Source: a virus
IMG/VR virus record: IMGVR_UViG_3300042332_000715
Location: 3,211 to 67,210 of that record
DNA: 64,000 nucleotides
Reading direction: 5' to 3' (one strand)
Part shown: positions 203-63,844 of the stretch, piece after piece
How the letters are laid out: each line of letters begins with the position of its first letter
Numbering within the stretch: position 1 is the stretch's first letter
Made by a program: the position numbers and the translations under genes
Notes under the pieces: model-generated
Told to the model about the DNA's origin: nothing
Databases searched by the model: none
What the model saw: the letters and a program-made list of their open reading frames with translations, nothing else

Positions 203-571
203 TTATGAGTAGGCAACTCCCGTTACGTTGTCACCGGTGTATGTGTATGTCTTGGTCAGGCTGATACCTGATGGAGTCGCACCGGATAGCACAATCGAGG
301 TCACTTTGTCGCCGGTGTAGTTAATCGTTTTCGTGATCGTGGTCGTGTTAGGTAAGGTATAAACCACCGTCGAGATTCGGCTAGCCGAATAAGTAACGGC
401 GAATGGATATGCCGAAAGATTACTAGCCACCGATTCAAATGTAGAAGCGGCTGTGCCGCTACCGGACCCCGGCGGACCTTCCGGCCCGACTGGTCCCTGC
501 GGACCTCGCTCTATAACCTCTATAACGGTCGATACCGCGTCGTCTGAGACGACTTCGATAATATCACTCAT
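203..571 (-). CDS. hypothetical virion-associated protein with a short collagen-like G-X-Y stretch
   Basis: RGPQGPVGPEGPPG followed by repeated beta-strand-like motifs (KTINYTGDKVT / KTYTYTGDNVT). Confidence 0.6.
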   Translation of the reverse strand: MSDIIEVVSDDAVSTVIEVIERGPQGPVGPEGPPGSGSGTAASTFESVASNLSAYPFAVTYSASRISTVVYTLPNTTTITKTINYTGDKVTSIVLSGATPSGISLTKTYTYTGDNVTGVAYS

Positions 572-968
572 CGATGTTCGCCCCGCCTTTCAGCTTTAAT
601 TTGCCCCATATCCAGGTCTTTTCGGTCGTGCCGTCGAACGTCTCGACCTCATAGACCGGCGAATCGCCTTCCGCATAATCGCCGTTAGCGATAGAGCGGG
701 TGTCATCGGGAGTCAAAATGGCTAGAATCTCGTTGTCACTATCTCCGCTTACTACAACATCAGGTGTAGGAGTAGTGTCAGTCGATTTTAGAACTAGCCT
801 AGTACCCCCCGCTTGGGGGGCTTTATCGTAAACAGTCACGTTAACGCGAATACCCGTTAACGGGTAAGGCGTGGTCGTGCCGGTAGTGCTTCCGGTCCAA
901 AGACGGAATTCTAGCCGTTTGTGATTGCCTACCCAGAGATCTTGGTCGTTGCGAGGTGGTGTTGCCAT
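564..968 (-). CDS. hypothetical structural protein, BppU N-terminal-like beta sandwich
   Basis: pattern YPLTG...ILAILTPDDT...VYEVE...TWIWGKL resembles small phage baseplate-upper-like proteins; promoter directly upstream. Confidence 0.5.
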   Translation of the reverse strand: MATPPRNDQDLWVGNHKRLEFRLWTGSTTGTTTPYPLTGIRVNVTVYDKAPQAGGTRLVLKSTDTTPTPDVVVSGDSDNEILAILTPDDTRSIANGDYAEGDSPVYEVETFDGTTEKTWIWGKLKLKGGANIDE

Positions 969-976
969 AAGTTTTG

Positions 977-1005
977 ATTATAGCATCATAGGCTAGCCGA
1001 TGCAA
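977..1005 (-). promoter_or_regulatory. sigma70-type promoter TTGCAT-N17-TATAAT with CGGCTAGCC in the spacer
   Basis: reverse complement ttgcat-cggctagcctatgatgc-tataat, 8 nt upstream of the 968 start codon. Confidence 0.7.
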
Positions 1006-1173
1006 GAGAATTGTAACCTTGGGTTCCGCCTAGCGGAACTTCGGTGCAAAAAAGTACGCATTTGTTCAAAAGGCATTAGGTCATTTTTGAGAGGCGTCCA
1101 CCAAGGAAAACATTGGGTGTTTCTGATTTTAGGTACAGTTTGTGTCACATATTGGAGATAACCCATTTATATG

Positions 1174-1303
1174 GGTGTGTGTGGAGGTGTAACCTCCTGT
1201 GGTGTCCTGGTGTGTGTGGAGGTGTAACCTCCTGTGGTGTCCTGGTGTGTGTGGAGGTGTAACCTCCTGTGGTGTCCTGGTGTGTGTGGAGGTGTAACCT
1301 CCT
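1174..1303. repeat. 35-bp perfect tandem repeat x3.7, each unit with a GGAGGT-GTA-ACCTCC hairpin
   Basis: unit GGTGTGTGTGGAGGTGTAACCTCCTGTGGTGTCCT starts at 1174, 1209, 1244 and 1279 (last one partial). Confidence 0.95.
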
Positions 1304-1326
1304 TTTAGCTTTTTTTTGCCGAAATT

Positions 1327-1401
1327 TTGCAGACTACCCGCTAAGTCGGTATACTGGATAGAAATGCGAAAAGCTGTATCGCGCAAACGACACAGCTTTT
1401 C
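1327..1401 (+). promoter_or_regulatory. promoter TTGCAG-N17-TATACT plus leader hairpin upstream of the mini-polymerase gene
   Basis: -35 at 1327-1332, -10 at 1350-1355; stem GAAAAGCTGT 1368-1377 / ACAGCTTTTC 1392-1401. Confidence 0.55.
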
Positions 1402-1444
1402 TGGCCCATTCCATTACCAGAACTAACGAAATGAGATACCATCT

Positions 1445-2554
1445 ATGGTACGCAAAAAGGTTGCTTTAAGCAACAGAATCTACCAGATTCCGATCCCAAA
1501 AAATGCAGTTTTTTCCGGTCCGCTAGCGGACCATCTAGCCTATCTTAGCTACCGCATCCTGATGATGACTTCGCAACGCGAAGATTATCGTGAAAAAGGA
1601 TTCTTCATTCCATTTAGCCGTGATTACGGCAGGCGGATTTTCGGTGGTCAATGGGATCAAGTTAAGCGGCTAGCCGCTTCTGAGTATTCCCACATATTCC
1701 ATTTCAATGAGAAGTATTCTTACCTAGAAGGGCAAAAAGGTTTCCCTAAATCCGTCCGCTTAGAGGACGAATATCGTACTGGTGAGGTTGAACTATACAC
1801 CCTACGCCGGTCTAGACCGGCAAAAGGTGTCATAGGGATCGAAGAAAACGATAAAACAGGCATGAAGCTCGTCGAAGATTTCGACCACTTCTATCTGCCA
1901 GAGTGTCCACCGGACTTCGATAACGCTTGGCAAGCGTTCACTTGGAGCCGCATAGCGGCTAAAGACTTCTACGCATCGAAGTGTGAGTTCGGCAGGTTCC
2001 ACTCGAACTTCACCGCTTTTAAGCACCGTGACAGGCTCCAATGCGACGGTGGAGCGACCGCAATAGATATTGTGGCTTGCCAGCCACTTATCTTAGGCGG
2101 ACTCGTCCTAGAGCATTTTGGGCCCCTTCCTGACGTTGTTGAATGGATACGCCTCTGCTCTGAGGAAGATCCCTATGAGCGGCTAGCCGCTCTAAATGGC
2201 ACAGATCGCTCTACGACGAAGGCGAATCTGATTCAGTGTATCTTCGAGCGAAGATTCCATATGCAGGCTATGGCTATCTACCGGCTGCTAGCAGCCGAAT
2301 TTCCGACGATTGCTCGGTACTTACTTGAGATCAAGGAAGTACACTATGAGCGAGTCGCTCATAATTGCCAACGGCGTGAATCACTTTTACTTATAGAGCA
2401 AGCAGTAAAAGATCTGGGTGAGATCCCAGTTGTTACCGTTCATGACGAATTTATTGTTCCCAGCAAGTACGCGGATAAGGTCCAGAACAAGATCAATCGC
2501 CGTTTCCTTGCTGCGGGGCTAAAGCCCCAGTTCAAGAGAACGGAACATTTCTAA
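1445..2554 (+). CDS. small family-A DNA polymerase / single-subunit RNA polymerase-like protein (palm and fingers only)
   Basis: GRFHSNFT, motif A-like AIDIVACQP, motif B-like K-x-x-L-x-x-x-F, FPTI, Q-x-x-ES, motif C VTVHDEFIV; no exonuclease domain. Confidence 0.65.
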   Translation: MVRKKVALSNRIYQIPIPKNAVFSGPLADHLAYLSYRILMMTSQREDYREKGFFIPFSRDYGRRIFGGQWDQVKRLAASEYSHIFHFNEKYSYLEGQKGFPKSVRLEDEYRTGEVELYTLRRSRPAKGVIGIEENDKTGMKLVEDFDHFYLPECPPDFDNAWQAFTWSRIAAKDFYASKCEFGRFHSNFTAFKHRDRLQCDGGATAIDIVACQPLILGGLVLEHFGPLPDVVEWIRLCSEEDPYERLAALNGTDRSTTKANLIQCIFERRFHMQAMAIYRLLAAEFPTIARYLLEIKEVHYERVAHNCQRRESLLLIEQAVKDLGEIPVVTVHDEFIVPSKYADKVQNKINRRFLAAGLKPQFKRTEHF

Positions 2555-2572
2555 TAAATTTCTATTTTCCCG

Positions 2573-2601
2573 TTGTCGGCTAGCCGACATATGGCTATAG
2601 T
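2573..2601 (+). promoter_or_regulatory. promoter TTGTCG-N17-TATAGT overlapped by a 16-bp CTAG palindrome
   Basis: TGTCGGCTAGCCGACA at 2574-2589 covers the -35 box and spacer; SD GAAAGGG precedes the 2622 ATG. Confidence 0.55.
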
Positions 2602-2621
2602 ATTGGTGAAAGGGAAATACG

Positions 2622-2942
2622 ATGATCTGTACGATTGCCGGTTTTGACACTTATGACATGCAGGCAGGTAGACGATTGTTCTACTTGAACAAGGTAATTC
2701 ATGTAGGTGCAACCTACTACCAATACAAGCCGGTCTACTACGGACACCAGACCAAATCCGGTCTTTATGTCGTGTACCACGACGAGAAGATCGAGGTTCC
2801 TGCTCGGCACATCCGAGAAGATAGCTACTGGGTTAGATTTTTGAACCACAAGGAAGATCGAGCGTGCCGCTCATCGCTTCCAAAGTGGATGTTGTTTACT
2901 GATATTTCTGAGGACGAAAGGAAAACTAGGGCACTAAAATGA
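2622..2942 (+). CDS. hypothetical protein
   Basis: ORF with SD; ATGA overlap with the next gene. Confidence 0.65.
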   Translation: MICTIAGFDTYDMQAGRRLFYLNKVIHVGATYYQYKPVYYGHQTKSGLYVVYHDEKIEVPARHIREDSYWVRFLNHKEDRACRSSLPKWMLFTDISEDERKTRALK

Positions 2943-3601
2943 GCGAAATCGAAATGAAGGTTGGGGAATGGTATGAAAATACACGTTGCGAACGTCTGTA
3001 TTGCGGACTTGAAATACCAGTCACAGTCAGAAAGGGTACTAGATTTGTTTGTTACAGGAAAGACGGAGGATTGAAGTCGTTTACTGATGACGGTAGATAC
3101 TACGACGACAGAACACAAAGCAGCCAGGATATAGTTCGCCATCTGCCCGGTTGCACCGGGTTTGACTGGGAAGAACCCAAGTTCAAGGTCGGCGATGTCG
3201 TCTATGCGACCAAGCCGGAAAACACCAGACAATACCCAATCTGGGCTTGTTCTATGGATGAACTACAAGGCAAAGCCTTGACTGTAACACATGTAAGGAA
3301 AGAAACGCTAGATGTCAAAGGAAGTGTGTACTCTTTTCACCATGATTGGCTATCCAAAGAGCCGCCAGCGGCTCAATATAGAGCATTTGCCAATGAAGAG
3401 GAATACGCACCCCACTTCGACCGAAAGGTCTTGCGTCAGAGTAAGGCTTCGCCTGAGGCGAAGGGGCAGTATCGGATCGGCGCGTTCGACGAGTCTAAAG
3501 TGTGGACGACAGATGGTGTCCAATGCACTTACGCGCAGATGCTCAAAGACGGACGTAAGTTCGCTGACACGAACGAACCGTTTGGGGTAAAGATAAACTA
3601 G
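2939..3601 (+). CDS. hypothetical protein with an SH3-like FKVGDVV module
   Basis: 220-aa ORF coupled to the upstream gene. Confidence 0.7.
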   Translation: MSEIEMKVGEWYENTRCERLYCGLEIPVTVRKGTRFVCYRKDGGLKSFTDDGRYYDDRTQSSQDIVRHLPGCTGFDWEEPKFKVGDVVYATKPENTRQYPIWACSMDELQGKALTVTHVRKETLDVKGSVYSFHHDWLSKEPPAAQYRAFANEEEYAPHFDRKVLRQSKASPEAKGQYRIGAFDESKVWTTDGVQCTYAQMLKDGRKFADTNEPFGVKIN

Positions 3602-3606
3602 TTACT

Positions 3607-3834
3607 ATGGATAGACGAACTGCAATTAGAACCATAGGAGCGGCTACCGCCGCTCTTGGAATGGGTGGCCTATCCTCGGTGAAACCGAGTAGCGGCTGCG
3701 TGCTGCCTAAAAGCGAATGGCAAACACTTGAGGATGTCATCCTAGTAGAGTGTATTCCATTCGACTTAAAGAATGCTCAGCACATGGATTTACTTCTAGC
3801 GTATCACGCTAGCGGTGAAATAGACAGCAGATAG
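3607..3834 (+). CDS. small protein with a twin-arginine (Tat)-like signal
   Basis: N-terminus MDRRTAIRTIGAATAALG. Confidence 0.55.
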   Translation: MDRRTAIRTIGAATAALGMGGLSSVKPSSGCVLPKSEWQTLEDVILVECIPFDLKNAQHMDLLLAYHASGEIDSR

Positions 3835-3894
3835 GTGAGTGGATGCGAAACCAAGATAGAAGAACTTATAGGTACTTAAAGGAGATAGAGTGAT

Positions 3895-4698
3895 ATGTCC
3901 GTGTATTTTACAGCCATCGGGGGATTTGCGAATCAAGCTATCCAATACCTTGCAGCATCCAAACTTGCTCTAGAGCAAGGAACAGATGTAGTCTGTGATC
4001 TGAGCTTCCTAAATTCTCAAAATGAGAACCAGGGCTTCACTATGCGAAGTTATATGCTCGATAAATTACAGAACGCACCCAAGACCTGCGATTATCCGCC
4101 AGCGGATTGCGAGGTGTTTCCGTGGGAAACCAACGACAACCCAAGCGGCAGATGCTTAGGCAACGTAAAGCTGCAAGGCTATTTCCAAAGGCTTTCAGCC
4201 TTACCAGATCGATATACTTCCTGTGGCATTTTGAAGGTTTACCTTCCGTTTAATGCTATGAAGGAGATTACCGATGGGCCGATGGCAATCGGCATCCACG
4301 TAAGACGTGGCGATTACGTCTCGAATCCTTCCGCGAACGCCTTTCATGGCGTATGCAGTATTGATTATTATATGGAAGCGTTGGACCATATTAAGCGGGA
4401 GCAACTAGCTCATGATAAGGCTGTTTGCTGGATCGCCACCGACGATAGAGACTGGTGTTTTGAACGTCTGATCCCGAAGTTGAAACGGGACTTCCTGTTC
4501 ATTTCCGATTACACTAACAACGACGTAGAGGAATGGGATATGCTCTCAAACTGCGACGTTGGTATAATGGCCAATTCCAGCTATAGCTGGCTGGCCGCTT
4601 ACGTTAGTGGCCATAACGAGTGGATTTATCCGCGTGATTGGCGAACTGGCTCGGGTCGGCTAGCCGACCATTGCCCTGACGCCTGGATTTGTATTTAA
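3895..4698 (+). CDS. glycosyltransferase family 11 (alpha-1,2-fucosyltransferase-like)
   Basis: GGFANQAIQY, LQGYFQ, GIHVRRGDY, ATDD and NSSYSWLAAY motifs. Confidence 0.92.
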   Translation: MSVYFTAIGGFANQAIQYLAASKLALEQGTDVVCDLSFLNSQNENQGFTMRSYMLDKLQNAPKTCDYPPADCEVFPWETNDNPSGRCLGNVKLQGYFQRLSALPDRYTSCGILKVYLPFNAMKEITDGPMAIGIHVRRGDYVSNPSANAFHGVCSIDYYMEALDHIKREQLAHDKAVCWIATDDRDWCFERLIPKLKRDFLFISDYTNNDVEEWDMLSNCDVGIMANSSYSWLAAYVSGHNEWIYPRDWRTGSGRLADHCPDAWICI

Positions 4699-4711
4699 CT
4701 AGAGAGGAGAA

Positions 4712-4978
4712 TTGAAAGTGATTACGATTAAGCACAAAGAGAAACGATTGACTGTTCTATCTGCTGTGTACCAAGCATTTATACACGACGGGAAGACGTA
4801 TGTTGTTATCAGAAAACCTAATTCAACGTATATGACTATGGACGTGACAGGTACTCGTATTCCGTGCTTGAACATCAAATCTTTGTCCGTAGTGGCTTTC
4901 GAGCGTAACACGCTCGTTGAGCCTGTGGACTTGGAAATAACTGTCGCGCCGATGGATATCCCACTACCGGAAGCATAA
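4712..4978 (+). CDS. hypothetical protein
   Basis: SD GAGGAG; in operon context. Confidence 0.55.
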   Translation: MKVITIKHKEKRLTVLSAVYQAFIHDGKTYVVIRKPNSTYMTMDVTGTRIPCLNIKSLSVVAFERNTLVEPVDLEITVAPMDIPLPEA

Positions 4979-5425
4979 ATGGTTAGAATAATCCCATCTG
5001 CCAAAGCAAAAGCCGAAGTTAGGTCCGCTATGCGGACGCTAGGGGCTAATTGCACGTTAGACGAAATCAAGGAATTAACAGGCTATCAGCCTGCCTTGAT
5101 TCGGCAGATCATCAAGGAATCCAAGACTAAGCCCAAGAAAACTGGCGTTGTCTCCAAGACTCCCGAGGAGCGGGACGCTCCTGTGTTTATTAAGGAAATC
5201 CAAAAGAACACTGGACTTGAATGTGTCAAGTTAGTTACGATTAGAGGCATGGACGAATGGATGCTACTTGCCCCTACAGGAGTGCCGCTATTGCGGCTTA
5301 TCGGAAAGGGCGATTTGATTCAATTCGCTAGAGCAGGTAAAGAGCCGTCAAAAGTCCTGCAAGGACTCAAGACGAGTGTTATTGAAGGTAGACGCCAAGC
5401 AAGGAAAAGGAAACGAAAAGTCTAA
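4979..5425 (+). CDS. hypothetical basic protein, possible N-terminal HTH
   Basis: TLDEIKELTGYQPALIRQII is HTH-like; Lys/Arg-rich. Confidence 0.55.
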   Translation: MVRIIPSAKAKAEVRSAMRTLGANCTLDEIKELTGYQPALIRQIIKESKTKPKKTGVVSKTPEERDAPVFIKEIQKNTGLECVKLVTIRGMDEWMLLAPTGVPLLRLIGKGDLIQFARAGKEPSKVLQGLKTSVIEGRRQARKRKRKV

Positions 5426-6072
5426 AGTCCCTTGAGTGCTGAGAGCACCTCGACGATAACTGGATGACGCATATTACAGCTTGCATCAAATCGTTGGATA
5501 CCAACGCTAGGCAGGCCGTCAACGGCCTTTAAGAAGATCGGATAACCTCCCATGCCTCTAGTATCCTGGGCGCAGTCGCCAATGATAGCTAGGCGACTGT
5601 CTTTGCCTAATCTAGTGACGAGTGCCCGAAACTCCTCTATAGATAAGTTCTGGGCTTCGTCAAGGATTACGAAGGCATTAGAGAACGTCATTCCTTGGAT
5701 GTAGGGAAGCGGATACGCTTCTATTAGGTCTGGATGAATCCCGAGGTCTTTGGCTATAGCGTGCATTGGTGCCAAGTATGGAGCCATTTTTTCGCTGGCC
5801 GTTCCTGGGATCGCCCCTAATTTCGATCTTCCCATTTCAAGCGGAGATCTGACATAGATGATCTTCTCAAATAGCCCCGATTCAATGGCTTGCTTTCCCC
5901 AGGCAAGGGCACACCAGCTTTTCCCTGTTCCTGCATCCCCTTCCAAGCAAACGATTGGTAGATTCTGAAAGAGGTACCAAGCGTTCTGCTGACTATCATT
6001 CAATCGAAATCTTTTGGGCATCTCGTGGAATGACTCAAGTTCCTGGTTTACTGGCCGTTTTCGCTTCGCCAT
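5422..6072 (-). CDS. phoH: PhoH-family ATPase
   Basis: GDAGTGKS, LGAIPG..EKMAPY, GMTFSNAFVILDEAQN, TRLG, GDCAQ, RHP. Confidence 0.93.
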   Translation of the reverse strand: MAKRKRPVNQELESFHEMPKRFRLNDSQQNAWYLFQNLPIVCLEGDAGTGKSWCALAWGKQAIESGLFEKIIYVRSPLEMGRSKLGAIPGTASEKMAPYLAPMHAIAKDLGIHPDLIEAYPLPYIQGMTFSNAFVILDEAQNLSIEEFRALVTRLGKDSRLAIIGDCAQDTRGMGGYPIFLKAVDGLPSVGIQRFDASCNMRHPVIVEVLSALKGL

Positions 6073-6139
6073 AAATGACTTTCTAAGGTATGGAGGTACT
6101 TTTGATTATACCGTATTCATCCCAAACTTGACACCAAAA

Positions 6140-6436
6140 TCAATCCTCATCGCCGAGATCGGCGGAACGGTAGCCGAGATCCCAGAGAATTTTAACCAAA
6201 TCGGCTTCTAATTCTAAGACTGCTTGCTCGCTGAATCGCGGCTCGATTATGTGAATCAGCTCATGGAGCAAGGCACCTAGAAGGGCTTTGCCCTTCAGTT
6301 TGTGGTTGATCCAGATATGCTTGTGGGCTGTCCTCGAATCGTTCTCAACTAACCCGTCGTAGCCGGGAATGTTGGCGGTAGTTAGAGTCCAGTACCTTCC
6401 TCCTATTTTGACTCTGCGTGGATGGATTTCTGGCAT
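6140..6436 (-). CDS. small zincin-like metallopeptidase domain protein
   Basis: LLHELIH (HExxH) with downstream SEQAV. Confidence 0.7.
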   Translation of the reverse strand: MPEIHPRRVKIGGRYWTLTTANIPGYDGLVENDSRTAHKHIWINHKLKGKALLGALLHELIHIIEPRFSEQAVLELEADLVKILWDLGYRSADLGDED

Positions 6437-6453
6437 TTTGAATCTCTTTATGT

Positions 6454-6526
6454 TATAATACGAAAGGCCGCAAGTCGTTCACTCTTGCGGCCTTTCTAAC
6501 CATTATCAACTGAATAGGAGTATCAA
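6454..6526 (+). promoter_or_regulatory. -10 box plus leader hairpin of HNH gene 1
   Basis: TATAAT 6454-6459; stem GAAAGGCCGCAAG 6462-6474 / CTTGCGGCCTTTC 6484-6496; same layout as the elements at 9213 and 13043. Confidence 0.7.
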
Positions 6527-7219
6527 ATGGCTAAGCCCATTATACCGTCTGAATCGTGGATTGCACCTGATTTTTCGCCAGAAACTTTCGGTCGTTTAAC
6601 GACCATTAGTTCTCCTTATAAACCCGAAGGGGCGAAATCGCCCGTACAGGACTTTGTTTGTAGCTGCGGGAATAAGGTGACTAAGCCAGTATCCAGCGTA
6701 AGATCCGGCAACACATCTAGCTGTGGTTGCATTAAAAGGGAGATACTAGAGAAACGAAACTATCGTCACGGAGGTTGTGGTAGCCTAGAACATCAAAATT
6801 ATACGGCTATGCTACAACGCTGCTACTACGAAGCAGGTGAGACGTACAAAAATTACGGAGCACGCGGTATAAAAGTCTGCGACCGGTGGCTTGAGCCAGA
6901 TGGTCGCGGCTTCGCTAATTTCCTCGCTGATATGGGTCCACGACCCGAACTCACATCAACAGTAGAGAGAAAAGATCCAAACAAGGACTACAGCCCAGAT
7001 AACTGCTGCTGGCTTCCCAAGAGATTACAAGGCCGGAATCAAAGGAGAAGCCACATGGTCACTATAGGAGACAGAACGCAATGCGTTGCAGCATGGGCAG
7101 AAGAATACGGCATAAAGGCGTCTACTGTATTCGACAGAATATATTTCGGATGGGAACCAGAAGAAGCTATAACCCTACCTGTAGGAGCTAAGAGGAAAAA
7201 ACCTTTGATCCGAAACTAG
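6527..7219 (+). CDS. free-standing HNH homing endonuclease 1, antisense within a - strand gene run
   Basis: FGRLT, CSCG, SCGC, YGARGIKVCDRW, DMGPRP, Y-x-P-x-NC-x-W motifs. Confidence 0.85.
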   Translation: MAKPIIPSESWIAPDFSPETFGRLTTISSPYKPEGAKSPVQDFVCSCGNKVTKPVSSVRSGNTSSCGCIKREILEKRNYRHGGCGSLEHQNYTAMLQRCYYEAGETYKNYGARGIKVCDRWLEPDGRGFANFLADMGPRPELTSTVERKDPNKDYSPDNCCWLPKRLQGRNQRRSHMVTIGDRTQCVAAWAEEYGIKASTVFDRIYFGWEPEEAITLPVGAKRKKPLIRN

Positions 7220-7940: not shown

Positions 7941-7983
7941 TTTTTCTTTTTACCCTTATTTTGATAAATTTCCATCTACGGCA

Positions 7984-57240: not shown

Positions 57241-57272
57241 AAGGAGGGGTTCAACCTGACAGTTGTACTTCC

Positions 57273-57301: not shown

Positions 57302-57318
57302 GAGATGTAATAAAATTC

Positions 57319-57346
57319 TTGCCAAAGTCAAATCATTTGGTAGAAT
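57319..57346 (+). promoter_or_regulatory. promoter TTGCCA-N16-TAGAAT with extended -10 TG, driving the candidate ncRNA
   Basis: read directly; back-to-back with the - strand promoter. Confidence 0.7.
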
Positions 57347-57352
57347 GGTACG

Positions 57353-57830
57353 ATCCACGGCCTAGCCGTGGCGGGTGGACTCGGGGCTGGACGCTCCCCA
57401 TCCGGGCGCGTGTTAGCGTGAAAGCCAAGCCTACTAGGTGGCAGATCGGGTAGTCAAGCATTACGACTTGGGAAGCTGAAAGCTTCGGGGAATGACGTGA
57501 GATACGGCATCTTCCTACAGCGTGGTACTAGGAAGCGACAGGATTACGCTAACACATAGCCCGCATCTATATGCGGGTTGGGGAGTGTAGTAGGGGCACC
57601 TACTACGACGGGCAAAGAGAACTGAAGATCCTCTGTACATTACCTAGCGAAAAACTAAACCCAAGCTCTGTGTACCCTCACAACTTGGTCCCGTGGCATT
57701 CACCTATAAGGTGTAACTAGCTAGAGTAAGAACCCCTGGATAGGTAACACATCCATAGCCAAACAAGCCGTTACACGGCTAAAACAAACACCGCAAGGCA
57801 TAATGCCGGGCATAGAGGGTTCCCACGCAC
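57353..57830 (+). ncRNA. candidate large structured non-coding RNA (about 480 nt)
   Basis: no ORF of 60 aa or more; nested long-range helices and many hairpins; own promoter. Confidence 0.65.
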
Positions 57831-59258
57831 TTACTTCAAAACGCCTAATTTAACCGTTTGCTTGGTCAAAACATTGAATGCTAGCGAAGTGGCATCCACT
57901 TGGTCGTCATGCGACCCATCTGGGAAATACATGAATTCAGACTCGTAATCGTCCCAAACTTCACCGCCAATGGCGGTGTGGATGTTTCCCATGTTGATCT
58001 GAGTCGAGAGCGAATCCGCTCTAACTAGCTTACTGCCGCTGGAAGCGGCCTTTTCGACGTGGACGACGAAGCCATTTAGCCGCTTCACGGCTGCTTTGGC
58101 AGCGTCGATACCTGCGGAGCCTAGTTCTTGCTCTAGAGCGATCTTAACGTGCCTGCCATCGGCGTGAGCCGTTGCTACGATGATCTTCTCGCGTTCGTCC
58201 GTGTCCCACTGACCTCTGCGAATGTCGAGAATCCAGATCGTCCCATCGTCCATCATTCCCAGCTTGGCGCCGACCGTAAAGTCGCCGCTAGCCGCGAGAG
58301 CGGCTTTATCCCAAGCACGCACGATCTTTTTGAACGCTCGATCCGCTGGCGGAGCCAAGTGCTTAACGACTCTATCTATCTTGATAGCACCACCACCGGG
58401 CGGAATGGGCTGTTGCAGGATTTGTCCTGCGTAGCCCCAATCACCTAACTGGACCCGCAAATCGGCAAGAGCCTTCCGGCTCAATCGATCAGGGTCGAAC
58501 AAACCATCGACGTAGTGTTGACGTAGTTCAGGTGGATTGATAAAGTCGGATTCGACCCCCGGCAAGCAGATCAGCTTGACATTTGGATATTCTTTCAGCA
58601 TGACTGCCGTAGGGTCGCCAACGGAGATCCGTTGCATGACAAGGTAGGTGAAGGACACGTCCTTGTCCACTTTCCGGCTCGGCAGCGTTTCTTTCATAAA
58701 CCTAGCCGCCTCTAGCTGCGCTGCTGCCGATCTACCGCCCTGCGGGTCCAGAGGATCGTCGATGCCCAGAACGTGGGCGTGACGCCCCATGATACCGCCT
58801 TTGATGCCGTAGGCGTATCTATCGCCTCCGAGCGTATTACTCCAAAGGCTCATCTTGTTTAAGTCGCCGCGTAGCTCGATTTCGGGGAATAGCTTCTGGT
58901 AGAGCGGAGATTGAACCACACGTCTGCTCTTGACGGTGAGTTCGAATGCTAGATCTTCCGTAAAGCTGGCACCGAGGAACCGCAGCCCTGGAAACCTAGT
59001 CCACGCCCAAGGCGTGTAAAGGACCGTGAAGATCGATGACTTCGACGTACCGGGACTGATGTTGCAGATTAGATCGTATTCCTTCGGTTCGCCGCGAAAG
59101 ACCCTTTCGGATGCGACCTGAAGTTCGTTGCACAGGTACGGGATGTGCCAATTTACCTTTAGTTTCTGGTCGGAGATCACAGGCCAGAAGGTTTTGACGA
59201 AGTGGAAGTAGCTCTCTCTACAAAGGCGGCTTAGCTCGCCGTAGTAGTCAATTTGCAT
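57831..59258 (-). CDS. terL: terminase large subunit
   Basis: NISPGTSKS, GIDDP, VMQR, YAGQILQQP, WDKA, DFTVG, HDDQVDA. Confidence 0.95.
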   Translation of the reverse strand: MQIDYYGELSRLCRESYFHFVKTFWPVISDQKLKVNWHIPYLCNELQVASERVFRGEPKEYDLICNISPGTSKSSIFTVLYTPWAWTRFPGLRFLGASFTEDLAFELTVKSRRVVQSPLYQKLFPEIELRGDLNKMSLWSNTLGGDRYAYGIKGGIMGRHAHVLGIDDPLDPQGGRSAAAQLEAARFMKETLPSRKVDKDVSFTYLVMQRISVGDPTAVMLKEYPNVKLICLPGVESDFINPPELRQHYVDGLFDPDRLSRKALADLRVQLGDWGYAGQILQQPIPPGGGAIKIDRVVKHLAPPADRAFKKIVRAWDKAALAASGDFTVGAKLGMMDDGTIWILDIRRGQWDTDEREKIIVATAHADGRHVKIALEQELGSAGIDAAKAAVKRLNGFVVHVEKAASSGSKLVRADSLSTQINMGNIHTAIGGEVWDDYESEFMYFPDGSHDDQVDATSLAFNVLTKQTVKLGVLK

Positions 59259-59315
59259 TATTTGCCTCTATACATTAGAATTAACGCTTCTCTTACTCTA
59301 TCATAAGGTAAACTT

Positions 59316-59774
59316 ATGCCTAAGCCATCAAAAAAGCCGAAATCGGCTACTACAGTGTTCTTGGAGTCTTGTGCTCGCCGCGCGAAGCGGATTCTACTAG
59401 GAATGGGCGAAGAACCGGCAGAGCCGGTCAATCGCGGGTTCAACCGCACTAAGATCAAGCTATCCGAGAAATACGCACATACGATTCTCGACAGCACAAA
59501 AGAAGGGCCGTGTGCGGCCCTTGCTCGGAATATGATCGACTTAACTGTGTCCTTGGATAACTATTGGGCACAGTTGTTTCCCATTATGGAGGAAATCGAT
59601 CACAAGATTAAGACTCAGAACTGCTATCTTGAGATTGATCCGACTGGGTGGTACTTTCGGGATTCGGCTGGGAATCTTCTTTCTTCAGGCGAATCCCTCC
59701 GGCTCTGGTTAGCATCTCACGCACAGTTGTATACCGATTGGGAAGTCGAGGTGTTTGACCGCGAGGCGGAGTAA
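59316..59774 (+). CDS. hypothetical protein
   Basis: 152-aa ORF divergent from terL. Confidence 0.6.
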   Translation: MPKPSKKPKSATTVFLESCARRAKRILLGMGEEPAEPVNRGFNRTKIKLSEKYAHTILDSTKEGPCAALARNMIDLTVSLDNYWAQLFPIMEEIDHKIKTQNCYLEIDPTGWYFRDSAGNLLSSGESLRLWLASHAQLYTDWEVEVFDREAE

Positions 59775-60258
59775 GTGCTTCCCTCGGGATCGTTTCGGGA
59801 TCGACTACGATACCCTGCGAATCCAAGATATACTGAGCGATGCGTGCCCGATCTCGGGCCTCATCGTTCGCCTTCCATTGTTCGATCAGCTTCAGCTTGT
59901 GCAGGCGTGCCTGCTCGTAGCGTTCGTACTTGGTAGCATCCTTTTCGCATAGATACTCCAAGAATTCCTCGTTTTCGGGGTTCTTGGGTAGGTCTTTGAG
60001 CCAGTCTTTGAGCTTTTTCGCCGTTGTGAATCGGAAAAAGCTACGGGCTTCGCCCGATCTGATGGAGATGGAGAGGTCCATGATGCCCAATTGGGGGATT
60101 CGGACGTATCCAGTCTCTTTGAACTGAGCTACTAGCTCGATGAAAGCCGACTCAACGACTGCCTTAGCCAAACCCTTAGTAATCCCTTGCTGTTTGGCAA
60201 CAGCCTCGGATATCGACTTAATTGTTGTGGTTTTTTTCTTGATTTTACCCATCGTCAT
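59608..60258 (-). CDS. HU/IHF-like DNA-binding protein with C-terminal extension
   Basis: ISEAVAKQQGITKGLAKAVVES, VRIPQLG, FRFTTAKKLKD. Confidence 0.72.
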   Translation of the reverse strand: MTMGKIKKKTTTIKSISEAVAKQQGITKGLAKAVVESAFIELVAQFKETGYVRIPQLGIMDLSISIRSGEARSFFRFTTAKKLKDWLKDLPKNPENEEFLEYLCEKDATKYERYEQARLHKLKLIEQWKANDEARDRARIAQYILDSQGIVVDPETIPREALTPPRGQTPRLPNRYTTVREMLTRAGGIRLKKEDSQPNPESTTQSDQSQDSSSES

Positions 60259-60304
60259 GCCCTGTATTGTGTATATTAGGTGTCAGAAAGGGGTATATCA
60301 TACC

Positions 60305-60817
60305 ATGCAATTAGAAGAATTTCAGCAAAAAGTGTCGGAAATGTTGTCCGAGGTCGAATTCGAGGACTCCGATCAGGTTACTGTTCTCGCTAGCTACTTA
60401 GCTGCTTGCAGCAGCAATGTAGTCCGGCAGATCAACGAAGTCTACAATGAAGCCACCGGCTTCCCGGTAGACGATAACTACGACGAACACATGGCAAACC
60501 TCGACACTTTGTCGTTTGCTCTCGGTGTTGACGTAGTTACGCTAAACGAAGAACGACTTAGAGCGGCCCTGCTCGCTCTGCAATGCCGCTTAGCACGCAA
60601 AGCGTTGCTCGGCAACGTAGATCAGATTCAAGTGTTCGATTGTATGCTTGGGATGCTGACTGGATACGTCGCAGGTGTCTTGATCGCTTCGCGTTCGGAC
60701 GACCTTGAGAACAAGGAAAGATGGCAGGCTGTCGGGAATATGCTGCGAAAAGATCTATTTGATCGTATCATGGCAGAAATCAGCAAGCACAATCCAGATG
60801 TAGGACAGCTAAACTAG
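60305..60817 (+). CDS. hypothetical acidic helical protein
   Basis: start reassigned to the ATG at 60305 (MQLEEFQ). Confidence 0.6.
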   Translation: MQLEEFQQKVSEMLSEVEFEDSDQVTVLASYLAACSSNVVRQINEVYNEATGFPVDDNYDEHMANLDTLSFALGVDVVTLNEERLRAALLALQCRLARKALLGNVDQIQVFDCMLGMLTGYVAGVLIASRSDDLENKERWQAVGNMLRKDLFDRIMAEISKHNPDVGQLN

Positions 60818-61228
60818 ATGTTCAAGGCATTTTTGGCGTTAATTCTAGGCCTAACGCCGCTGTCTCAGCGGCTTCGGCCTGTGGAATACGTGGATATGAT
60901 CGAACTGAATCATTTCCACAACAAAAAAGGCCAGCACGTCTATTCTCAGGTCATTTTCTACGAAAGATTGGCCGATAACGGCCAGTTTCGTGTTAGGAGC
61001 TGGGCATTGATCGAGATGCGAGAGTCGTTAAACCGACTACCGCAATACGATCCTACGGTCGATAAGGTCGTGGTGGACATGAAAATGCCCGATGGTAAGG
61101 TAGTACGGCTGGAAAGCCGTCTTTTTAAGGAAACTTGGACTGATTTTGATCCTGAACGTCGGGATAAGGACAAGTTACCGGAGCAATTTAGACTACGGCT
61201 AGCCGTAGAAGGGATTAAGAAATGGTAA
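60818..61228 (+). CDS. hypothetical protein with a signal-like N-terminus
   Basis: VDMIELNHF...QVIFY...ETWT..DPE, recalled as a planctomycete-type family (not verified). Confidence 0.65.
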   Translation: MFKAFLALILGLTPLSQRLRPVEYVDMIELNHFHNKKGQHVYSQVIFYERLADNGQFRVRSWALIEMRESLNRLPQYDPTVDKVVVDMKMPDGKVVRLESRLFKETWTDFDPERRDKDKLPEQFRLRLAVEGIKKW

Positions 61229-61569
61229 AAGTACAGCTAGTTAAGCCAATCGAAGGCTTTGAGCCTTTCGCCGAACTCAGAGTACCTGAATTCTTAGATT
61301 ACTACATGGACTCCTACGGTGAAGTGCAGCAGAACTTCAATAGCGACTGTACCATACCTGTATTGGTACTTACCCCGCTGAAAGCGTGGAGGGATGCTAC
61401 ACAGATCGATATCGAAGCAGCCCTTGATGGCGTAGCCATCGAAGGCTTGTTTGGCGATGGTAAAAGTCCAAAGAAATCTATACTAATAGGCGGATACCGC
61501 CTTGCAGATCAATTGCGTTTCGTAGACGCAGATGGAGTCGATTGGCACTCCTGTAAGGTATACAAATAA
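61222..61569 (+). CDS. hypothetical protein, paralog of 8512-8880
   Basis: PIEGFE...RVP and WRDAT. Confidence 0.65.
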   Translation: MVKVQLVKPIEGFEPFAELRVPEFLDYYMDSYGEVQQNFNSDCTIPVLVLTPLKAWRDATQIDIEAALDGVAIEGLFGDGKSPKKSILIGGYRLADQLRFVDADGVDWHSCKVYK

Positions 61570-61712
61570 TGGTATTCACAGGCGTCTACATTTTCTTTGC
61601 CATCTGCGTGCTATGCCCGCCGATTGGCTTTTTGGTGGCGTTGTATTTACTGCTCGCCGTAATCGGCGATGTTATCGCACCTGCGTCTAGACGCAGAAGG
61701 AATAGGTGGTAA

Positions 61713-62273
61713 ATGATCTGGTTTACTAGCGATACCCACTTCAACCACGAAAACATCGTCAAATACTCCAATCGTCCGTTTACGGACCTCGGAGAAATGA
61801 CTGAGGTTCTAGTCAAGAACTGGAACGAAGTCGTGGAGAAGGGTGATACAGTGTACCATTTGGGCGATTTCGCCCTATCTTACGGTAAGCAGTCAGTCGA
61901 TGTAATCGACAAGCTGCTATCGCGTCTGAATGGCCAGAAGCACTTAATCAAGGGTAATCACGACAGAAAGCAGGTACTCGACAATCCGAGATGGGCTTCT
62001 GTTAGGGATTACCACGAAATCAAGGTAGACCTTGGTGGAATCCATAAGCAGCGTATCGTAATGTCCCATTACTGTATGCGTGTATGGAACCAAATGCACC
62101 GAGGAGCGTGGATGCTCCACGGTCACAGTCATGGCAACCTAGCCGACCCTGGCGGCAAAGTTCTGGACGTAGGCGTAGACGTATGGAATTACGGCCCGAT
62201 CTCATTGGATGCCCTACAAATCTGGATGGAAGCCAGAGAGGTAATCGCATACGATCACCACGTACCGGAGTAA
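61713..62273 (+). CDS. calcineurin-like phosphoesterase
   Basis: FTSDTHFNH, YHLGDF, KGNHD, MSHY, LHGHSH, DVGVD. Confidence 0.92.
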   Translation: MIWFTSDTHFNHENIVKYSNRPFTDLGEMTEVLVKNWNEVVEKGDTVYHLGDFALSYGKQSVDVIDKLLSRLNGQKHLIKGNHDRKQVLDNPRWASVRDYHEIKVDLGGIHKQRIVMSHYCMRVWNQMHRGAWMLHGHSHGNLADPGGKVLDVGVDVWNYGPISLDALQIWMEAREVIAYDHHVPE

Positions 62274-62278
62274 CTAGA

Positions 62279-62485
62279 ATGATAGCGTTTACCGAAGAAT
62301 CCCAAAAACCCAAGCCAAAGCAGGAGGCTACGCCTCCCTCGGAAGCTGCAACCTATTGCGGTGTATTAGGTACTGCTCTAGCTGTAGCCATCAGCTACAC
62401 AGCCTACAAGTCTATCGCCTGGGCGATACTTCATGGCTGCTGCGGTTGGCTCTTTGTCCTATGGTACTGGCTATTCCGCACCTAA
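62279..62485 (+). CDS. small two-TM membrane protein
   Basis: LGTALAVAISY...SIAWAILHG...W..V; start reassigned to 62279. Confidence 0.6.
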   Translation: MIAFTEESQKPKPKQEATPPSEAATYCGVLGTALAVAISYTAYKSIAWAILHGCCGWLFVLWYWLFRT

Positions 62486-62607
62486 TTAAACCTCCAAATT
62501 GGGCGTCTAGACGCCCTTTCTTCGTTTCCAAGTCCAATCACACCACTTTACCTTAAAACCGCTTCTACGAGGCCGCTAGCGGCCTTAAAATCGAAATTCA
62601 AACCACT

Positions 62608-63369
62608 ATGGCAAACCGAACCAGTATATCCGACTTCCAATCCTACCGCGATGCTTGCCAGCTAGCCGCTACCGACCCTGCTGCCTTCAGCAGCTTCCGT
62701 CGTAATCCGGCACTAACTCAGATCTGGGAACACGTATCCTACGATCTAGGGCAGCAATACCTGGATCTAATCGATCTAGATCGATATCATCCCAAGAATT
62801 TCGCCCAAAACGACACAATCGGCGGTGCCGATACCCACTACTATCCCAAGATAGACATGGCCATCAGTCCATCTACTCTACGGTATATCCACGTACTACA
62901 GGAACTTGACCGACATTTCGGTCTAGAATACATAGATTCCATCGCCGAGATCGGCGGAGGATATGGTGGTCAGGCTGCTGTGATATTCCAATACTTGAAC
63001 TGGAAGCTGGAATACAAGATCTTCGATCTGCCTGAAGTCCGGTGGCTAGCTCACCAGTACCTAGGGCAGCTAGGAGATAAACTCGGCTACCGAGTTGTGG
63101 ATACACGCTGGGAATTCGATCTTTTGATCTCCAATTACGCATTCTCCGAGCTATCGGAGCAAGTACAGCAACAATACTTCGACGATGTAATCGTCCACTC
63201 CAAGAACGTCTACATGGTTTACAACCATATCAGCGAGGTATTTGGCATCAAATCCTGGTCTGTAGCTGAATTTGGCCGTAAGCTCATGTCCGCAGGATTC
63301 CAAGTCCTCGTTCTCGACGAGGCACCTAAGACCCATGCACGCAACTTCGTGGTCGTGGCGACCAAGTAA
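62608..63369 (+). CDS. putative sugar O-methyltransferase (class I SAM-dependent)
   Basis: SPSTLRY, IAEIGGGYGG, IFDLPEV, DLLISNYAFSEL. Confidence 0.82.
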   Translation: MANRTSISDFQSYRDACQLAATDPAAFSSFRRNPALTQIWEHVSYDLGQQYLDLIDLDRYHPKNFAQNDTIGGADTHYYPKIDMAISPSTLRYIHVLQELDRHFGLEYIDSIAEIGGGYGGQAAVIFQYLNWKLEYKIFDLPEVRWLAHQYLGQLGDKLGYRVVDTRWEFDLLISNYAFSELSEQVQQQYFDDVIVHSKNVYMVYNHISEVFGIKSWSVAEFGRKLMSAGFQVLVLDEAPKTHARNFVVVATK

Positions 63370-63453
63370 AACATTGGGAATCGATCAACTTTACTAGCAG
63401 TCAGACACTACCCATCTTTTAAGAAAAACAGGGTAGTTTTTATTACAACATCT

Positions 63454-63480
63454 AGGCGGCATTAGCCGCCTTTCTTTTTT
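63454..63480 (+). terminator. rho-independent terminator
   Basis: AGGCGGC-ATTA-GCCGCCT followed by a T-tract. Confidence 0.8.
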
Positions 63481-63844
63481 ACCTCCCGATCTGCAAATGC
63501 GGAGGTATCTTGTACCTTAGTTACCTATGTCGTCCGGTCGGCTAGCTGACCATTTCTCTGTACTTGGCCGTGTAACGGCCCTATTGCCGCTGAAAGCGGC
63601 TGCTTCTGCGGGCTTCCTTTGCTCGGCGAAGCCGAGTTTTGAAGTTTGGTTTTTATAAAAAATTTGAATTCGGGACTAAGCAACCGAAGCGGCGTGCCGC
63701 TTATGATAAGCAGAACTAATATGACCCCCCTTATCAATCGAGCTTATCATCATTCGATCTACTGCCCACTATCTGGGCACTAGTGCCCAATAACTATGCT
63801 ACGTCCGATAATGTACATTATGTTCGCTTGCCTAGTACGTATGC

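Follow-up and report, generated by a model that had tools for sequence, protein, structure and literature searches.

Template switching, first seen in phage T4, has been proposed as the cause of an excess of perfect short inverted repeats in Proteobacteria (PMC5941160). In non-coding E. coli DNA, 6-bp arms show a ratio of observed to expected repeats of ~1.04-1.07, and higher values are confined to long arms (PMC5941160, Table 1). Coding palindromes of up to 284 bp have moreover been described in the mitochondrial genes of hairworms (Nematomorpha; PMC6649704). The present study concerns a related property of IMG/VR record IMGVR_UViG_3300042332_000715, a virus contig of 67,210 bp (G000; estimated completeness 86%), of which bases 3211-67210, that is 64,000 nucleotides, form the window to which positions refer unless stated otherwise. 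An earlier examination of the letters of this window (the sequence-only reading) had drawn attention to perfect palindromes centred on CTAG. Our data show, with high confidence, that these palindromes are the symmetric-loop members of a genome-wide population of perfect short DNA inverted repeats (6-bp stem, 3- or 4-nt spacer, ~5.5 per kb, on either strand, mostly coding). This population is heritable in a clade of uncultured freshwater phages, in which the length of the stem depends on the lineage.

The repeats of Proteobacteria (PMC5941160) resemble those of the phage in that perfect arms outnumber imperfect ones and in that arms are either conserved or co-changing. They differ in that the 6-bp arms with 3-4-nt spacers of the phage reach 9-13 times expectation, are located in genes and have their maximum at exactly 6 bp. 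Likewise, the hairworm genes (PMC6649704) share with the phage many perfect inverted repeats in protein-coding genes, both arms being translated; the phage stems, however, measure 6 bp (8-15 bp in two relatives, G002 and G003), occur at ~5 per kb and belong to a clade of double-stranded DNA (dsDNA) phages rather than to an animal organelle. The claim of the sequence-only reading that no described system has this signature was thus too strong, since an excess of perfect short inverted repeats with a template-switch explanation, and coding palindromes, have both been published. A full-text literature search, outside which subscription journals lay, returned no paper describing such a phage genome. 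What is new here is the magnitude, the location inside the genes of a dsDNA phage clade and the lineage-set stem length.

Three other kinds of system deserve comparison. Cyanobacterial HIP1, mycobacteriophage stoperators and REP elements are short, dispersed, over-represented fixed words, in part coding in the case of HIP1. No single sequence is common to the CTAG sites, and the phage arms vary freely, complementarity alone being kept; HIP1 itself has 0 copies in the contig. The promoters of the phage N4 virion RNA polymerase are DNA hairpins with a 5-7-bp stem and a 3-nt loop, and this enzyme belongs to the same structural superfamily as family-A polymerases. The geometry is nearly identical, but N4 has a handful of such hairpins, upstream of early genes and on one strand, whereas 353 sites are found here, in both orientations and inside genes; the extra polymerase of the clade is a 369-aa protein with a predicted family-A DNA polymerase fold (mini-PolA, ORF 1445-2554). 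Finally, Pol theta, a proofreading-free family-A polymerase, makes short inverted copies from microhomology by snap-back in end joining, and leaves insertions at repaired breaks. The phage repeats, in contrast, replace sequence in frame without indels, and the likeness of mini-PolA to Pol theta (8efc, 7zx0) is one of fold match only.

All maximal perfect palindromes of the window were enumerated by central tetramer and length. Outside a terminal tandem array (63845-64000), 46 palindromes of at least 14 bp are centred on CTAG (34 of 16 bp, nine of 14 bp and three longer), where ~0.1 would be expected. The sequence-only reading had counted about 43. All of its sites (31 of 16 bp, nine of 14 bp, three longer) proved to be perfect CTAG-centred palindromes, three 16-bp sites having been overlooked (3964, 26333 and 29161). 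With the array, which contributes five identical CTAG 16-mers, the lengths of 14, 16, 18 and 22 bp are represented by 9, 39, 2 and 1 palindromes. The peak at 16 bp is genuine, with five CTAG-centred palindromes of 10 bp and one of 12 bp; the other 15 palindromic tetramers together centre two 16-bp palindromes (TTAA at 851, TCGA at 10946). The commonest 10-mer core, CGGCTAGCCG, has 20 copies in the window, the figure given earlier, against 0.05 in 100 dinucleotide shuffles, and it accounts for 20 of the 46 sites. Otherwise the arms differ from site to site while their symmetry stays perfect: as had been noticed, it is symmetry that is kept, not sequence.

Open reading frames (ORFs) are here greedy calls (the longest non-overlapping open frames) rather than gene-finder output, and translation is deduced from the frames. 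In agreement with the earlier statement that most sites are coding and in different frames, 37 of the 46 CTAG palindromes lie inside ORFs, in two frames: a CTA codon occurs at 26, NCT-AGN at 11 and an in-frame TAG at none. Synonymous-codon shuffling (n=30 shuffles) leaves 0.1 CTAG 16-mers inside ORFs against 30 in the real sequence, so that the excess and the 16-bp peak stand up to the codon-preserving control and the full length spectrum that had been called for. Among the 331 CTAG sites with full flanks, the arms show no mismatch in 42 cases, one in 15 and two in 10. In nine of the 15 one-mismatch sites the mismatch is at the outermost pair, which leaves six with an interior mismatch against 42 perfect ones; the two-mismatch class is close to chance (~9 by rough arithmetic).

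These sites are part of a larger population. Among inverted repeats with a 6-bp stem, the window contains 198 whose loop measures 3 nt and 150 whose loop measures 4 nt, compared with 15.8 and 16.2 in dinucleotide shuffles (n=20). Inside ORFs, 189 and 138 are found, against 20.8 and 18.6 after synonymous-codon shuffling (n=30). Array included, this makes 353 hairpins against ~32-40 in shuffles, or ~5.5 per kb. Stems of 6, 7, 8 and 10 bp number 158, 33, 6 and 1 with 3-nt loops; those of 6, 7, 8 and 9 bp number 134, 16, 3 and 2 with 4-nt loops. Because 6-bp stems dominate all loop classes, the 16-bp length ruler proposed earlier is in fact a 6-bp stem rule: the peak at 16 bp holds for CTAG, but the fixed quantity is the stem, the total being 15 or 16 nt. 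Nor is the feature specific to CTAG, as had been supposed. CTAG forms the loop of 37 of the 150 four-nt-loop hairpins, the runner-up loop occurring four times, and 198 more hairpins have 3-nt loops. Among the latter, 85 have GNA or TNC triloops, against 12.5% by chance, the commonest centres being T-GNA-A and C-GNA-G. GNA loops are known for their stability; the triloop bias may arise partly from codon structure.

Hairpins are found in almost every gene and on both strands, with a mean spacing of ~180 bp and a largest gap of 1311 bp apart from one 3585-bp hole. Their spacing looks random; the regular spacing expected of priming sites was looked for across the contig and not seen. As in the hairworm genes, perfect inverted repeats thus lie in protein-coding genes, here greedily called ORFs, with both arms translated. 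The population as a whole does not consist of intergenic G+C-rich hairpins followed by a T run, as intrinsic terminators would, since 37 of the 46 CTAG sites and 324 of the 353 hairpins are in ORFs (no terminator scan was run).

The pairing property belongs to DNA, not to RNA. Among sense-strand near-hairpins with one mismatch in the window, G.T/T.G and A.C/C.A pairs are equally frequent (60 vs 61 and 55 vs 55), and in the long-stem relatives G002 and G003 the mismatches comprise 7 G.T/T.G, 16 A.C/C.A and 50 others. Loop use is alike on sense and antisense strands. As single-stranded DNA, the 6-bp hairpins fold at -5.1 to -6.7 kcal/mol. Interior one-mismatch stems show no excess (41-58 per position against ~47 expected by rough arithmetic); in G002 and G003, perfect stems of at least 10 bp number 116 and 104, against one-mismatch hairpins, with paired runs totalling at least 9 bp, that number 37 and 41. 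A search for structured RNA gave no Rfam match at gathering scores and no tRNA. The earlier view that symmetry is what is kept is thus borne out at the level of DNA, by the lack of a wobble excess and by compensated arm changes at orthologous sites.

In four other lake-water runs, from four studies, contigs at least 99% identical to the window were found, in which sites 29161, 29261, 30299, 31667, 31787, 31940, 32403 and 34544 are unchanged. With the same sites present in these runs and in related contigs, the concern that the palindromes might be assembly or amplification artefacts can be put aside. In one run, X2, a contig otherwise identical to the window shows four differences within 21 nt at 34259-34279; no hairpin is touched, and the place is near the contig end, at low depth. 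In a protein alignment of mini-PolA from six genomes, hairpin-coded residues do not stand at gaps, which argues that the hairpins are not insertions. An insertion or MITE-like origin was accordingly rejected, there being no extra residues relative to homologues and the arms being unrelated to one another.

The distribution of the trait was followed in relatives, namely metagenome contigs, mostly partial, found through homologues of mini-PolA. A complete genome of 70 kb, G005 (mini-PolA 39% identical), has the same 6-7-bp-stem spectrum as the window, at 4.6 per kb, with only 7 CTAG palindromes of at least 14 bp. In G001 (51% identical), stems are of 6-7 bp and perfect palindromes are centred on CATG, CCGG, TATA, ATAT and CTAG. 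The strong CTAG excess is thus specific to the lineage of the window. G002 (L079-L081) and G003 (L076-L078), whose mini-PolA is 45-46% identical, contain 203 and 194 perfect hairpins, whose stems measure 8-15 bp and whose loops measure 2-6 nt; 178 and 168 of these hairpins (87%) are inside ORFs. The two contigs show a more extreme form of the trait than the window. In 17 further loci, at least 2.8 hairpins per kb are reached only where mini-PolA is at least 42% identical to that of the window: seven of the 11 loci at 41% identity or more have 2.8-7.1 per kb, while the six at 39% or less have 0.1-1.1 per kb. The trait is thus a mark of an uncultured freshwater phage clade sharing mini-PolA, with stems of 6, 6-7 or 8-15 bp according to lineage. 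Separately, nine phage contigs (L014, L018, L020, L026, L042, L045, L046, L050 and L053) carry 2-4 copies of a fixed motif, GTCGGCTAGCCGAC, within a few kb. They have no tblastx match to the window at E 1e-8, a G+C content of ~44-47% and 1.1-3.2 hairpins per kb; the motif looks like a repeated regulatory site.

Among relatives, hairpin stems are conserved; they also turn over, and compensated changes of base pairs occur in them. Four close relatives of the window are available (L005, L006, L030 and L063, 70-98% DNA identity). Among 170 window hairpins compared with them, 117 are identical, 11 have changes in the loop only, 37 are broken and five contain indels; at 93% identity, 16 of 63 are broken. 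Between G002 and G003 (75-87% DNA identity), 164 hairpins could be aligned. Stems are identical in 73, and 14 are compensated and perfect in both genomes, two of these with three adjacent compensated pairs; the others have one (31), two (14) or three or more mismatches (16), or indels (16). At 1517, the window reads GGTCCG-CTAG-CGGACC and G001, at the same codons, GGTCGG-CATG-CCGACC, a synonymous Ala change in one arm being matched by a Pro/Arg change in the other. At 10704, the same ASRRSR peptide is encoded in L030 by other Ser and Arg codons, the CTAG 16-mer being shifted by one codon. Single compensated pairs also occur in several comparisons between G000, G005 and G001. Two window hairpins recur in G003, over the same codons, as the centres of longer hairpins, although positions shared between G000 and G003 show no overall excess (5 vs 4.7 expected). 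Where an intergenic hairpin is missing in a relative, a different one can occupy the spot or its vicinity (8768 in L030, 57764 in L063). Another case is that of hairpin 17481 (17477-17499), common to the window and the distant L030. In the closer L005 and L006 its place is taken by 5 changes within 10 nt, among them the replacement of all three bases of an Arg codon to give Lys; a small patch of recombination or an event affecting several bases might explain this cluster.

The contig also shows extreme restriction-site avoidance. GCGC occurs 34 times in the contig against ~220 expected, CTGGAG twice against 18, and of the 64 six-bp palindromes 36 do not exceed one fifth of their expected number, many being absent altogether. 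The same avoidance is seen in G001-G005 (30-48 of 64). Perfect palindromes of at least 14 bp occur only on permitted cores, namely GCTAGC (64 copies), TCTAGA (27), GTTAAC, TTCGAA, CTATAG, GTATAC, GATATC and TGTACA. Such a filter explains the near-absence of most other palindrome centres, and the dominance of CTAG is partly due to it, because so many six-bp palindromes are almost absent. The 3585-bp hole corresponds to contig 1-3585, which holds an 895-aa ORF; it contains 0 hairpins against ~19 expected, and both CTGCAG sites of the genome. No family was found for the 895-aa ORF, the atlas leads being sugar-esterase or lectin-like and all below 0.9. In another contig, the non-homologous left part L089:1-1826 has no 3-4-nt-loop hairpin, where a control region has at least 14 perfect short-gap (0-5 nt) repeats, and it carries GTGCAC, AAGCTT, GCATGC and CACGTG, which are nearly absent elsewhere. 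Hairpin-free and with avoided sites, both stretches thus look like recently acquired DNA without either signature. The 3585-bp stretch and its counterpart look like an exchangeable cassette, perhaps one for a candidate host-recognition protein.

What process could have produced such a population? The best mechanism in our view, which we consider possible though short of probable, is short-range template switching that writes and homogenises arms, with coding constraint acting as a filter. While phage DNA is being replicated or repaired, a nascent 3' end would snap back on a few complementary bases, usually G+C-rich, beside a 3-4-nt turn. A few further bases would then be copied from its own or the sister strand before return to the original template, as in Ripley's quasipalindrome mechanism. 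Such switches would both create short inverted repeats and re-homogenise their arms after point mutation, so that perfect repeats should far outnumber imperfect ones and arms should change in compensated pairs or blocks; the excess of perfect over imperfect repeats and the joint change of arms are both seen here. Protein-coding constraint would set which events survive, and very strong restriction-site avoidance would purge nearly all perfect palindromes with a restriction-type 6-bp core, so that mainly GCTAGC and TCTAGA cores are left. Lineages would differ in how long a tract is copied, or in how well long hairpins are tolerated (6, 6-7 or 8-15 bp), and recently arrived DNA would not yet have acquired hairpins. 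In this way template switching would account, with no need of a function for hundreds of unrelated sites, for arms that are perfect and change in compensated blocks, for a hairpin having grown longer in a sister lineage, for placement that looks random and for the absence of hairpins from new DNA.

It should, however, be noted that several observations weigh against a simple version of template switching, among them the 6-bp upper limit, the deep conservation of positions and the existence of a hairpin-free sister that has the polymerase. Stems longer than 6 bp are scarcer than chance extension would give (61 of 348, with 287 of exactly 6 bp; P = 5e-4 at p = 0.25), a limit that a copying process alone would not predict. 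Among the closest relatives, none of the 170 hairpins is fully compensated, and divergence of stems vs remaining sequence is 0.020 vs 0.087, 0.057 vs 0.080, 0.085 vs 0.103 and 0.038 vs 0.064 in the four comparisons. Of 194 window hairpins, 23 coincide with a G005 hairpin (5.9 +/- 2.4 expected), and 10 of 66 positions are shared with G001 (2.4 expected), numbers that in each case 0 of 2000 shifted controls reach. The signature of one-arm overwriting was sought in 48 G002/G003 hairpins that are perfect in one genome and have at least two mismatches in the other. One-arm changes are found in 10 of 48 (10.5 expected) and the summed |dL-dR| amounts to 64 where the null gives 73.9, the differences being even over both arms; exact inversions occur in two of 42 changed loops, which is not significant by rough estimate. 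The sister G004, with ~60% protein identity to G003, shows no hairpin excess (1.26 per kb) despite a mini-PolA 64% identical to that of G003 and the same core replication genes, and L093, L107 and L095 have 1.6, 1.6 and 1.8 hairpins per kb though their mini-PolA is at least 41% identical. Lastly, ~21 six-bp palindromes stand at half of expectation or more, so that restriction avoidance cannot account for the centring on CTAG of 51 of the 59 perfect palindromes of at least 14 bp.

Part of this is what would be expected of functional DNA hairpins under selection, an explanation that we find unlikely but that is the main rival. Single-stranded DNA (ssDNA) or extruded cruciforms would have to carry many hairpins of a set size, read by a phage or host protein (in priming, nicking, packaging or shielding from host defence), or acting through a bulk physical property. 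The conservation of stems relative to the remaining sequence (including the 73 identical ones of the G002/G003 comparison), the compensated changes, the positions kept over deep divergence, the upper limit on stem length, the replacement of intergenic hairpins by others at or near the same place, and the recurrence in relatives of tandem arrays with a same-stem hairpin all speak for it, as does the share of CTAG among four-nt loops, which no neutral argument here explains. Against it, the hairpins share no motif beyond pairing and are randomly rather than regularly spaced, and single hairpins appear dispensable, since about half are broken between genomes 75-87% identical and 16 of 63 at 93%. 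Furthermore, G004 has none with the same core genes and no trait-tracking gene was found (none was seen that is in all hairpin-rich contigs yet absent from G004, the contigs being 22-63% complete); positions shared by G000 and G003 are at chance; stems in G002 and G003 are broad (8 to 15 bp) rather than of fixed size; and no reader or benefit is known. DNA hairpins have also been reported as preferred sources of type III-A CRISPR spacers (PMC8860593), and would hence carry a cost. A more specific form, to which we give the same low weight, is that of a structure-coded genomic signal, in which hundreds of hairpins of lineage-set length would be kept in genes for reading on ssDNA, mini-PolA, a nuclease or, equally, a host defence being candidate readers; CTAG would then be a special loop class in the lineage of the window, the only loop identical on both strands yet escaping the restriction enzymes of the host. 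The sequence-only reading had offered either a structure-reading protein or a palindrome-writing process. Both stay live, for the whole hairpin population rather than for CTAG, and our tests did not decide between them; its suggestion of writing by nicking at CTAG gained no support, no link between the sites and such nicking having been found.

Three further explanations have less to recommend them. The CTAG subset, or parts of it such as the arrays and intergenic copies, might be sites of a dimeric DNA-binding protein preferring CGGCTAGCCG, atop the general hairpin background. The 20 copies of this core, the identical copies in the 29-bp end array, the fixed GTCGGCTAGCCGAC motif of phage contigs without a tblastx match to the window and the lineage specificity of the CTAG excess, G005 being rich in hairpins with few CTAG palindromes, would fit such an operator. 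It is nonetheless improbable: the arms differ yet are symmetric at all six positions, which a base-reading protein would not impose, 37 of the 46 sites are in ORFs, and the CTAG sites behave like the other hairpins, with a 6-bp stem rule, turnover and compensated changes. Hairpins acting in transcripts, in messenger RNA stability, pausing or protection from RNases, are more improbable still. Most sites are indeed transcribed, because they are within ORFs, and the palindrome at 22255 is terminator-like, but neither the window nor the long-stem relatives show an excess of G.U-compatible mismatches, loop use is alike on both strands and no Rfam family matches at gathering scores. Least credible of all are small mobile palindromic insertions or an assembly or amplification artefact. 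Palindromic mini-elements that insert in frame exist in other genomes. Here, however, there are no gaps at hairpins, a length of 16 nt is not divisible by 3, the arms are mutually unrelated and the same sites recur in four other runs and in related contigs.

Since homologues of mini-PolA mark the clade, this protein deserves attention. Searches of ORF 1445-2554 against Pfam and PHROG matched 0 families, and among 5.8 billion proteins 28 relatives were found at E 1e-5 or better, none of them named. An AlphaFold2 model (pLDDT 89.5) matches 118 PDB chains at E 0.001 or better, with KlenTaq (E 6.7e-6), T7 DNA polymerase, apicoplast Pol, Bst Pol I and Pol theta as top matches, query TM scores being only 0.32-0.44. 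The predicted structure thus points to a family-A DNA polymerase fold. Residues D208, Q213, R255/K259 and H333-D334-E335, which may correspond to polymerase motifs A, B and C, are invariant in the alignments. With 369 aa, the protein would be too short for an exonuclease domain. One may speculate that it is a candidate for the enzyme writing the hairpins. Its alignment, scanned against genome contigs, found no relative, and hence no host lead from prophages; clues to the host are limited to the freshwater origin and the heavy avoidance of restriction sites.

The virus is a tailed phage (terminase, portal, capsid-like and tape-measure genes) with a large replication set, which includes a DnaB-like helicase, a primase, a split PolA, a clamp-like factor, a clamp loader, FEN, a UvsX-like recombinase and HNH endonucleases. 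The main family-A polymerase is split into ORFs 17211-18608 and 27899-29119, 9 kb apart, which match different parts of one PHROG polymerase profile; it is unusual for a PolA to be accompanied by a clamp-like factor and a clamp loader. Of the gene content listed by the sequence-only reading, mini-PolA (by fold) and a split SbcC-like gene, alongside an Mre11-like phosphoesterase, were supported. No match to a TGT/DpdA-family profile was found on the contig (86% complete; divergent phage forms could escape the model), and for HU a single match was obtained, sub-threshold at 19.1 bits. A preQ0 synthesis cluster at 34296-37042 (QueD, QueE, QueC and FolE) points, from its predicted genes, to 7-deazaguanine DNA modification. 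Genes for a dNMP kinase, a pyrophosphatase and a deoxyribonucleotidase suggest altered nucleotide pools. HNH genes 6527-7219 and 9307-9987 (also 13137-13829 and 18609-19328 by DNA cross-matches) share DNA segments; the first of them contains one hairpin (1.4 per kb), and ORF 13137-13829 contains six. A DNA search of a phage collection with window 27000-34900 gave no match, and none of the proteins in that collection matches PolA at 30% identity or more. The SbcC-like protein found no relatives in viral contigs, and the UvsX-like protein found only 25%-identical loci without hairpin excess.

Table 1. Inverted repeats, tandem arrays and associated elements of the window (minus-strand ORFs are marked (-))
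Feature	Coordinates	Strand	Remarks
Perfect inverted repeats, stem at least 6 bp, loop 3 or 4 nt (n=353)	375..63976		324 in ORFs, 29 outside; CTAG palindromes are the symmetric-loop subset
CTAG, 16 bp	375..390		within ORF 203-571(-); identical in L089
CTAG, 16 bp	1517..1532		mini-PolA ORF; CATG-centred 16-mer at same codons in G001, compensated pair
CTAG, 16 bp	1664..1679		mini-PolA ORF; compensated A-T to G-C pair in L085, L087, L089
CTAG, 16 bp	1806..1821		mini-PolA ORF
CTAG, 16 bp	2177..2192		mini-PolA ORF
CTAG, 16 bp	2282..2297		mini-PolA ORF; centre is TTAG in L085
CTAG, 16 bp	2574..2589		intergenic, directly past mini-PolA ORF
CTAG, 16 bp	3964..3979		ORF 3895-4698, glycosyltransferase-like
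CTAG, 16 bp	4654..4669		ORF 3895-4698
CTAG, 16 bp	8397..8412		ORF 8054-8521; one stem mismatch in L030
CTAG, 14 bp	8768..8781		intergenic; adjoining place in L030 holds a different, GATC-centred 14-mer
CTAG, 16 bp	10704..10719		helicase ORF 9899-11305; CTAG 16-mer one codon off in L030, same ASRRSR peptide
CTAG, 16 bp	14174..14189		primase-like ORF 13778-14698
CTAG, 16 bp	14637..14652		ORF 13778-14698; 3-nt-loop hairpin at same place in G005 and G001, compensated pair
CTAG, 14 bp	15056..15069		DnaB-like ORF 15025-16413
CTAG, 16 bp	17103..17118		intergenic, upstream of PolA ORF
CTAG, 14 bp	22222..22235		intergenic
CTAG, 22 bp	22255..22276	+	intergenic, followed by T-rich run; intrinsic-terminator-like
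CTAG, 14 bp	22596..22609		ORF 22297-22932
CTAG, 14 bp	23199..23212		UvsX-like ORF 22886-23956
CTAG, 16 bp	26333..26348		ORF 25871-26389, PDDEXK nuclease-like
CTAG, 16 bp	29161..29176		SbcC-like ORF 29065-30258
CTAG, 16 bp	29261..29276		SbcC-like ORF 29065-30258
CTAG, 16 bp	29824..29839		SbcC-like ORF 29065-30258
CTAG, 16 bp	29911..29926		SbcC-like ORF 29065-30258
CTAG, 18 bp	30180..30197		SbcC-like ORF 29065-30258
CTAG, 16 bp	30299..30314		intergenic
CTAG, 16 bp	31667..31682		ORF 31619-31879
CTAG, 16 bp	31787..31802		ORF 31619-31879
CTAG, 14 bp	31940..31953		ATPase ORF 31848-32438
CTAG, 16 bp	32403..32418		ATPase ORF 31848-32438
CTAG, 18 bp	34544..34561		QueD-like ORF 34296-34649
CTAG, 16 bp	35330..35345		QueE-like ORF 35216-35890
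CTAG, 16 bp	37606..37621		ORF 37019-39046(-)
CTAG, 16 bp	38137..38152		ORF 37019-39046(-)
CTAG, 16 bp	47866..47881		ORF 47618-48055(-); one stem mismatch in L063
CTAG, 14 bp	49102..49115		structural-gene block
CTAG, 16 bp	50973..50988		ORF 50893-51276(-)
CTAG, 14 bp	54855..54868		ORF 53817-55169(-)
CTAG, 14 bp	57279..57292		full 16 bp in L063
CTAG, 16 bp	61193..61208		ORF 60818-61228
CTAG, 16 bp	61681..61696		between ORFs; 16-mer identical to 10704 site
CTAG, 16 bp	62501..62516		small ORF 62356-62556
CTAG, 16 bp	62570..62585		intergenic
CTAG, 16 bp	62770..62785		ORF 62608-63369
CTAG, 16 bp	63774..63789		non-coding hairpin-dense stretch preceding the array
Tandem array, 29-bp units	63845..64000		5.4 identical copies, cut by contig end; one CTAG 16-mer per unit
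Tandem array, 35-bp units	1174..1303		3.7 identical copies upstream of mini-PolA ORF; one 6-bp-stem GTA-loop hairpin per unit
TTAA-centred perfect 16-bp palindrome	851..866		core GTTAAC, a permitted six-mer
TCGA-centred perfect 16-bp palindrome	10946..10961		retained in L030; three mismatched pairs in L006
Mini-PolA, predicted family-A DNA polymerase, 369 aa	1445..2554	+	contains 14 hairpins (5 CTAG palindromes); its homologues are the marker of the hairpin-rich clade
Right end of 3585-bp hairpin-free stretch	1..374		895-aa ORF of no family, starting at window 127, minus strand

Tandem arrays that bear hairpins recur in the clade. Besides the two of the window, they are found at L072:10378-10466, at L075:10151-10242 and 5438-5498, and at G003 56-452, the last, at the start of that contig, being an array of period 126 bp with an 8-bp-stem hairpin. 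The 35-bp unit of the window and a 38-bp unit of G005 have in common a stem of the GGAGGT/ACCTCC type, with different loops, which resembles a Shine-Dalgarno/anti-Shine-Dalgarno pair. The end of G005 carries at least 13 copies of CTAGGTA, a heptamer also present inside the 29-bp unit of the window. The terminal 29-bp array was considered as a CRISPR array and rejected, its units being identical (100% matches), head to tail and without unique spacers, and no Rfam family matching at gathering score. Because arrays sit at contig ends, assemblies may break there; these arrays are candidates for an origin, a packaging site or an operator.

For annotators, these data carry a caution: striking palindromes may be the tip of a larger class of repeats defined by structure alone, the CTAG set here making up about a tenth of ~350 hairpins. 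The trait is easily scored, and it ranges between close relatives from no excess, through 6-bp stems, to stems of 8-15 bp, so that both comparative and laboratory work can test its cause. If the hairpins were selected, hundreds of sequence-independent DNA structures inside genes would constitute a new kind of genomic signal in a dsDNA phage. If, on the other hand, they are written by replication or repair, a single mutational process would be visibly reshaping a whole viral genome, amino-acid sequences included; the length of the stem would then be a read-out of the enzyme, and the small family-A polymerase of the clade would offer a way to study the process.

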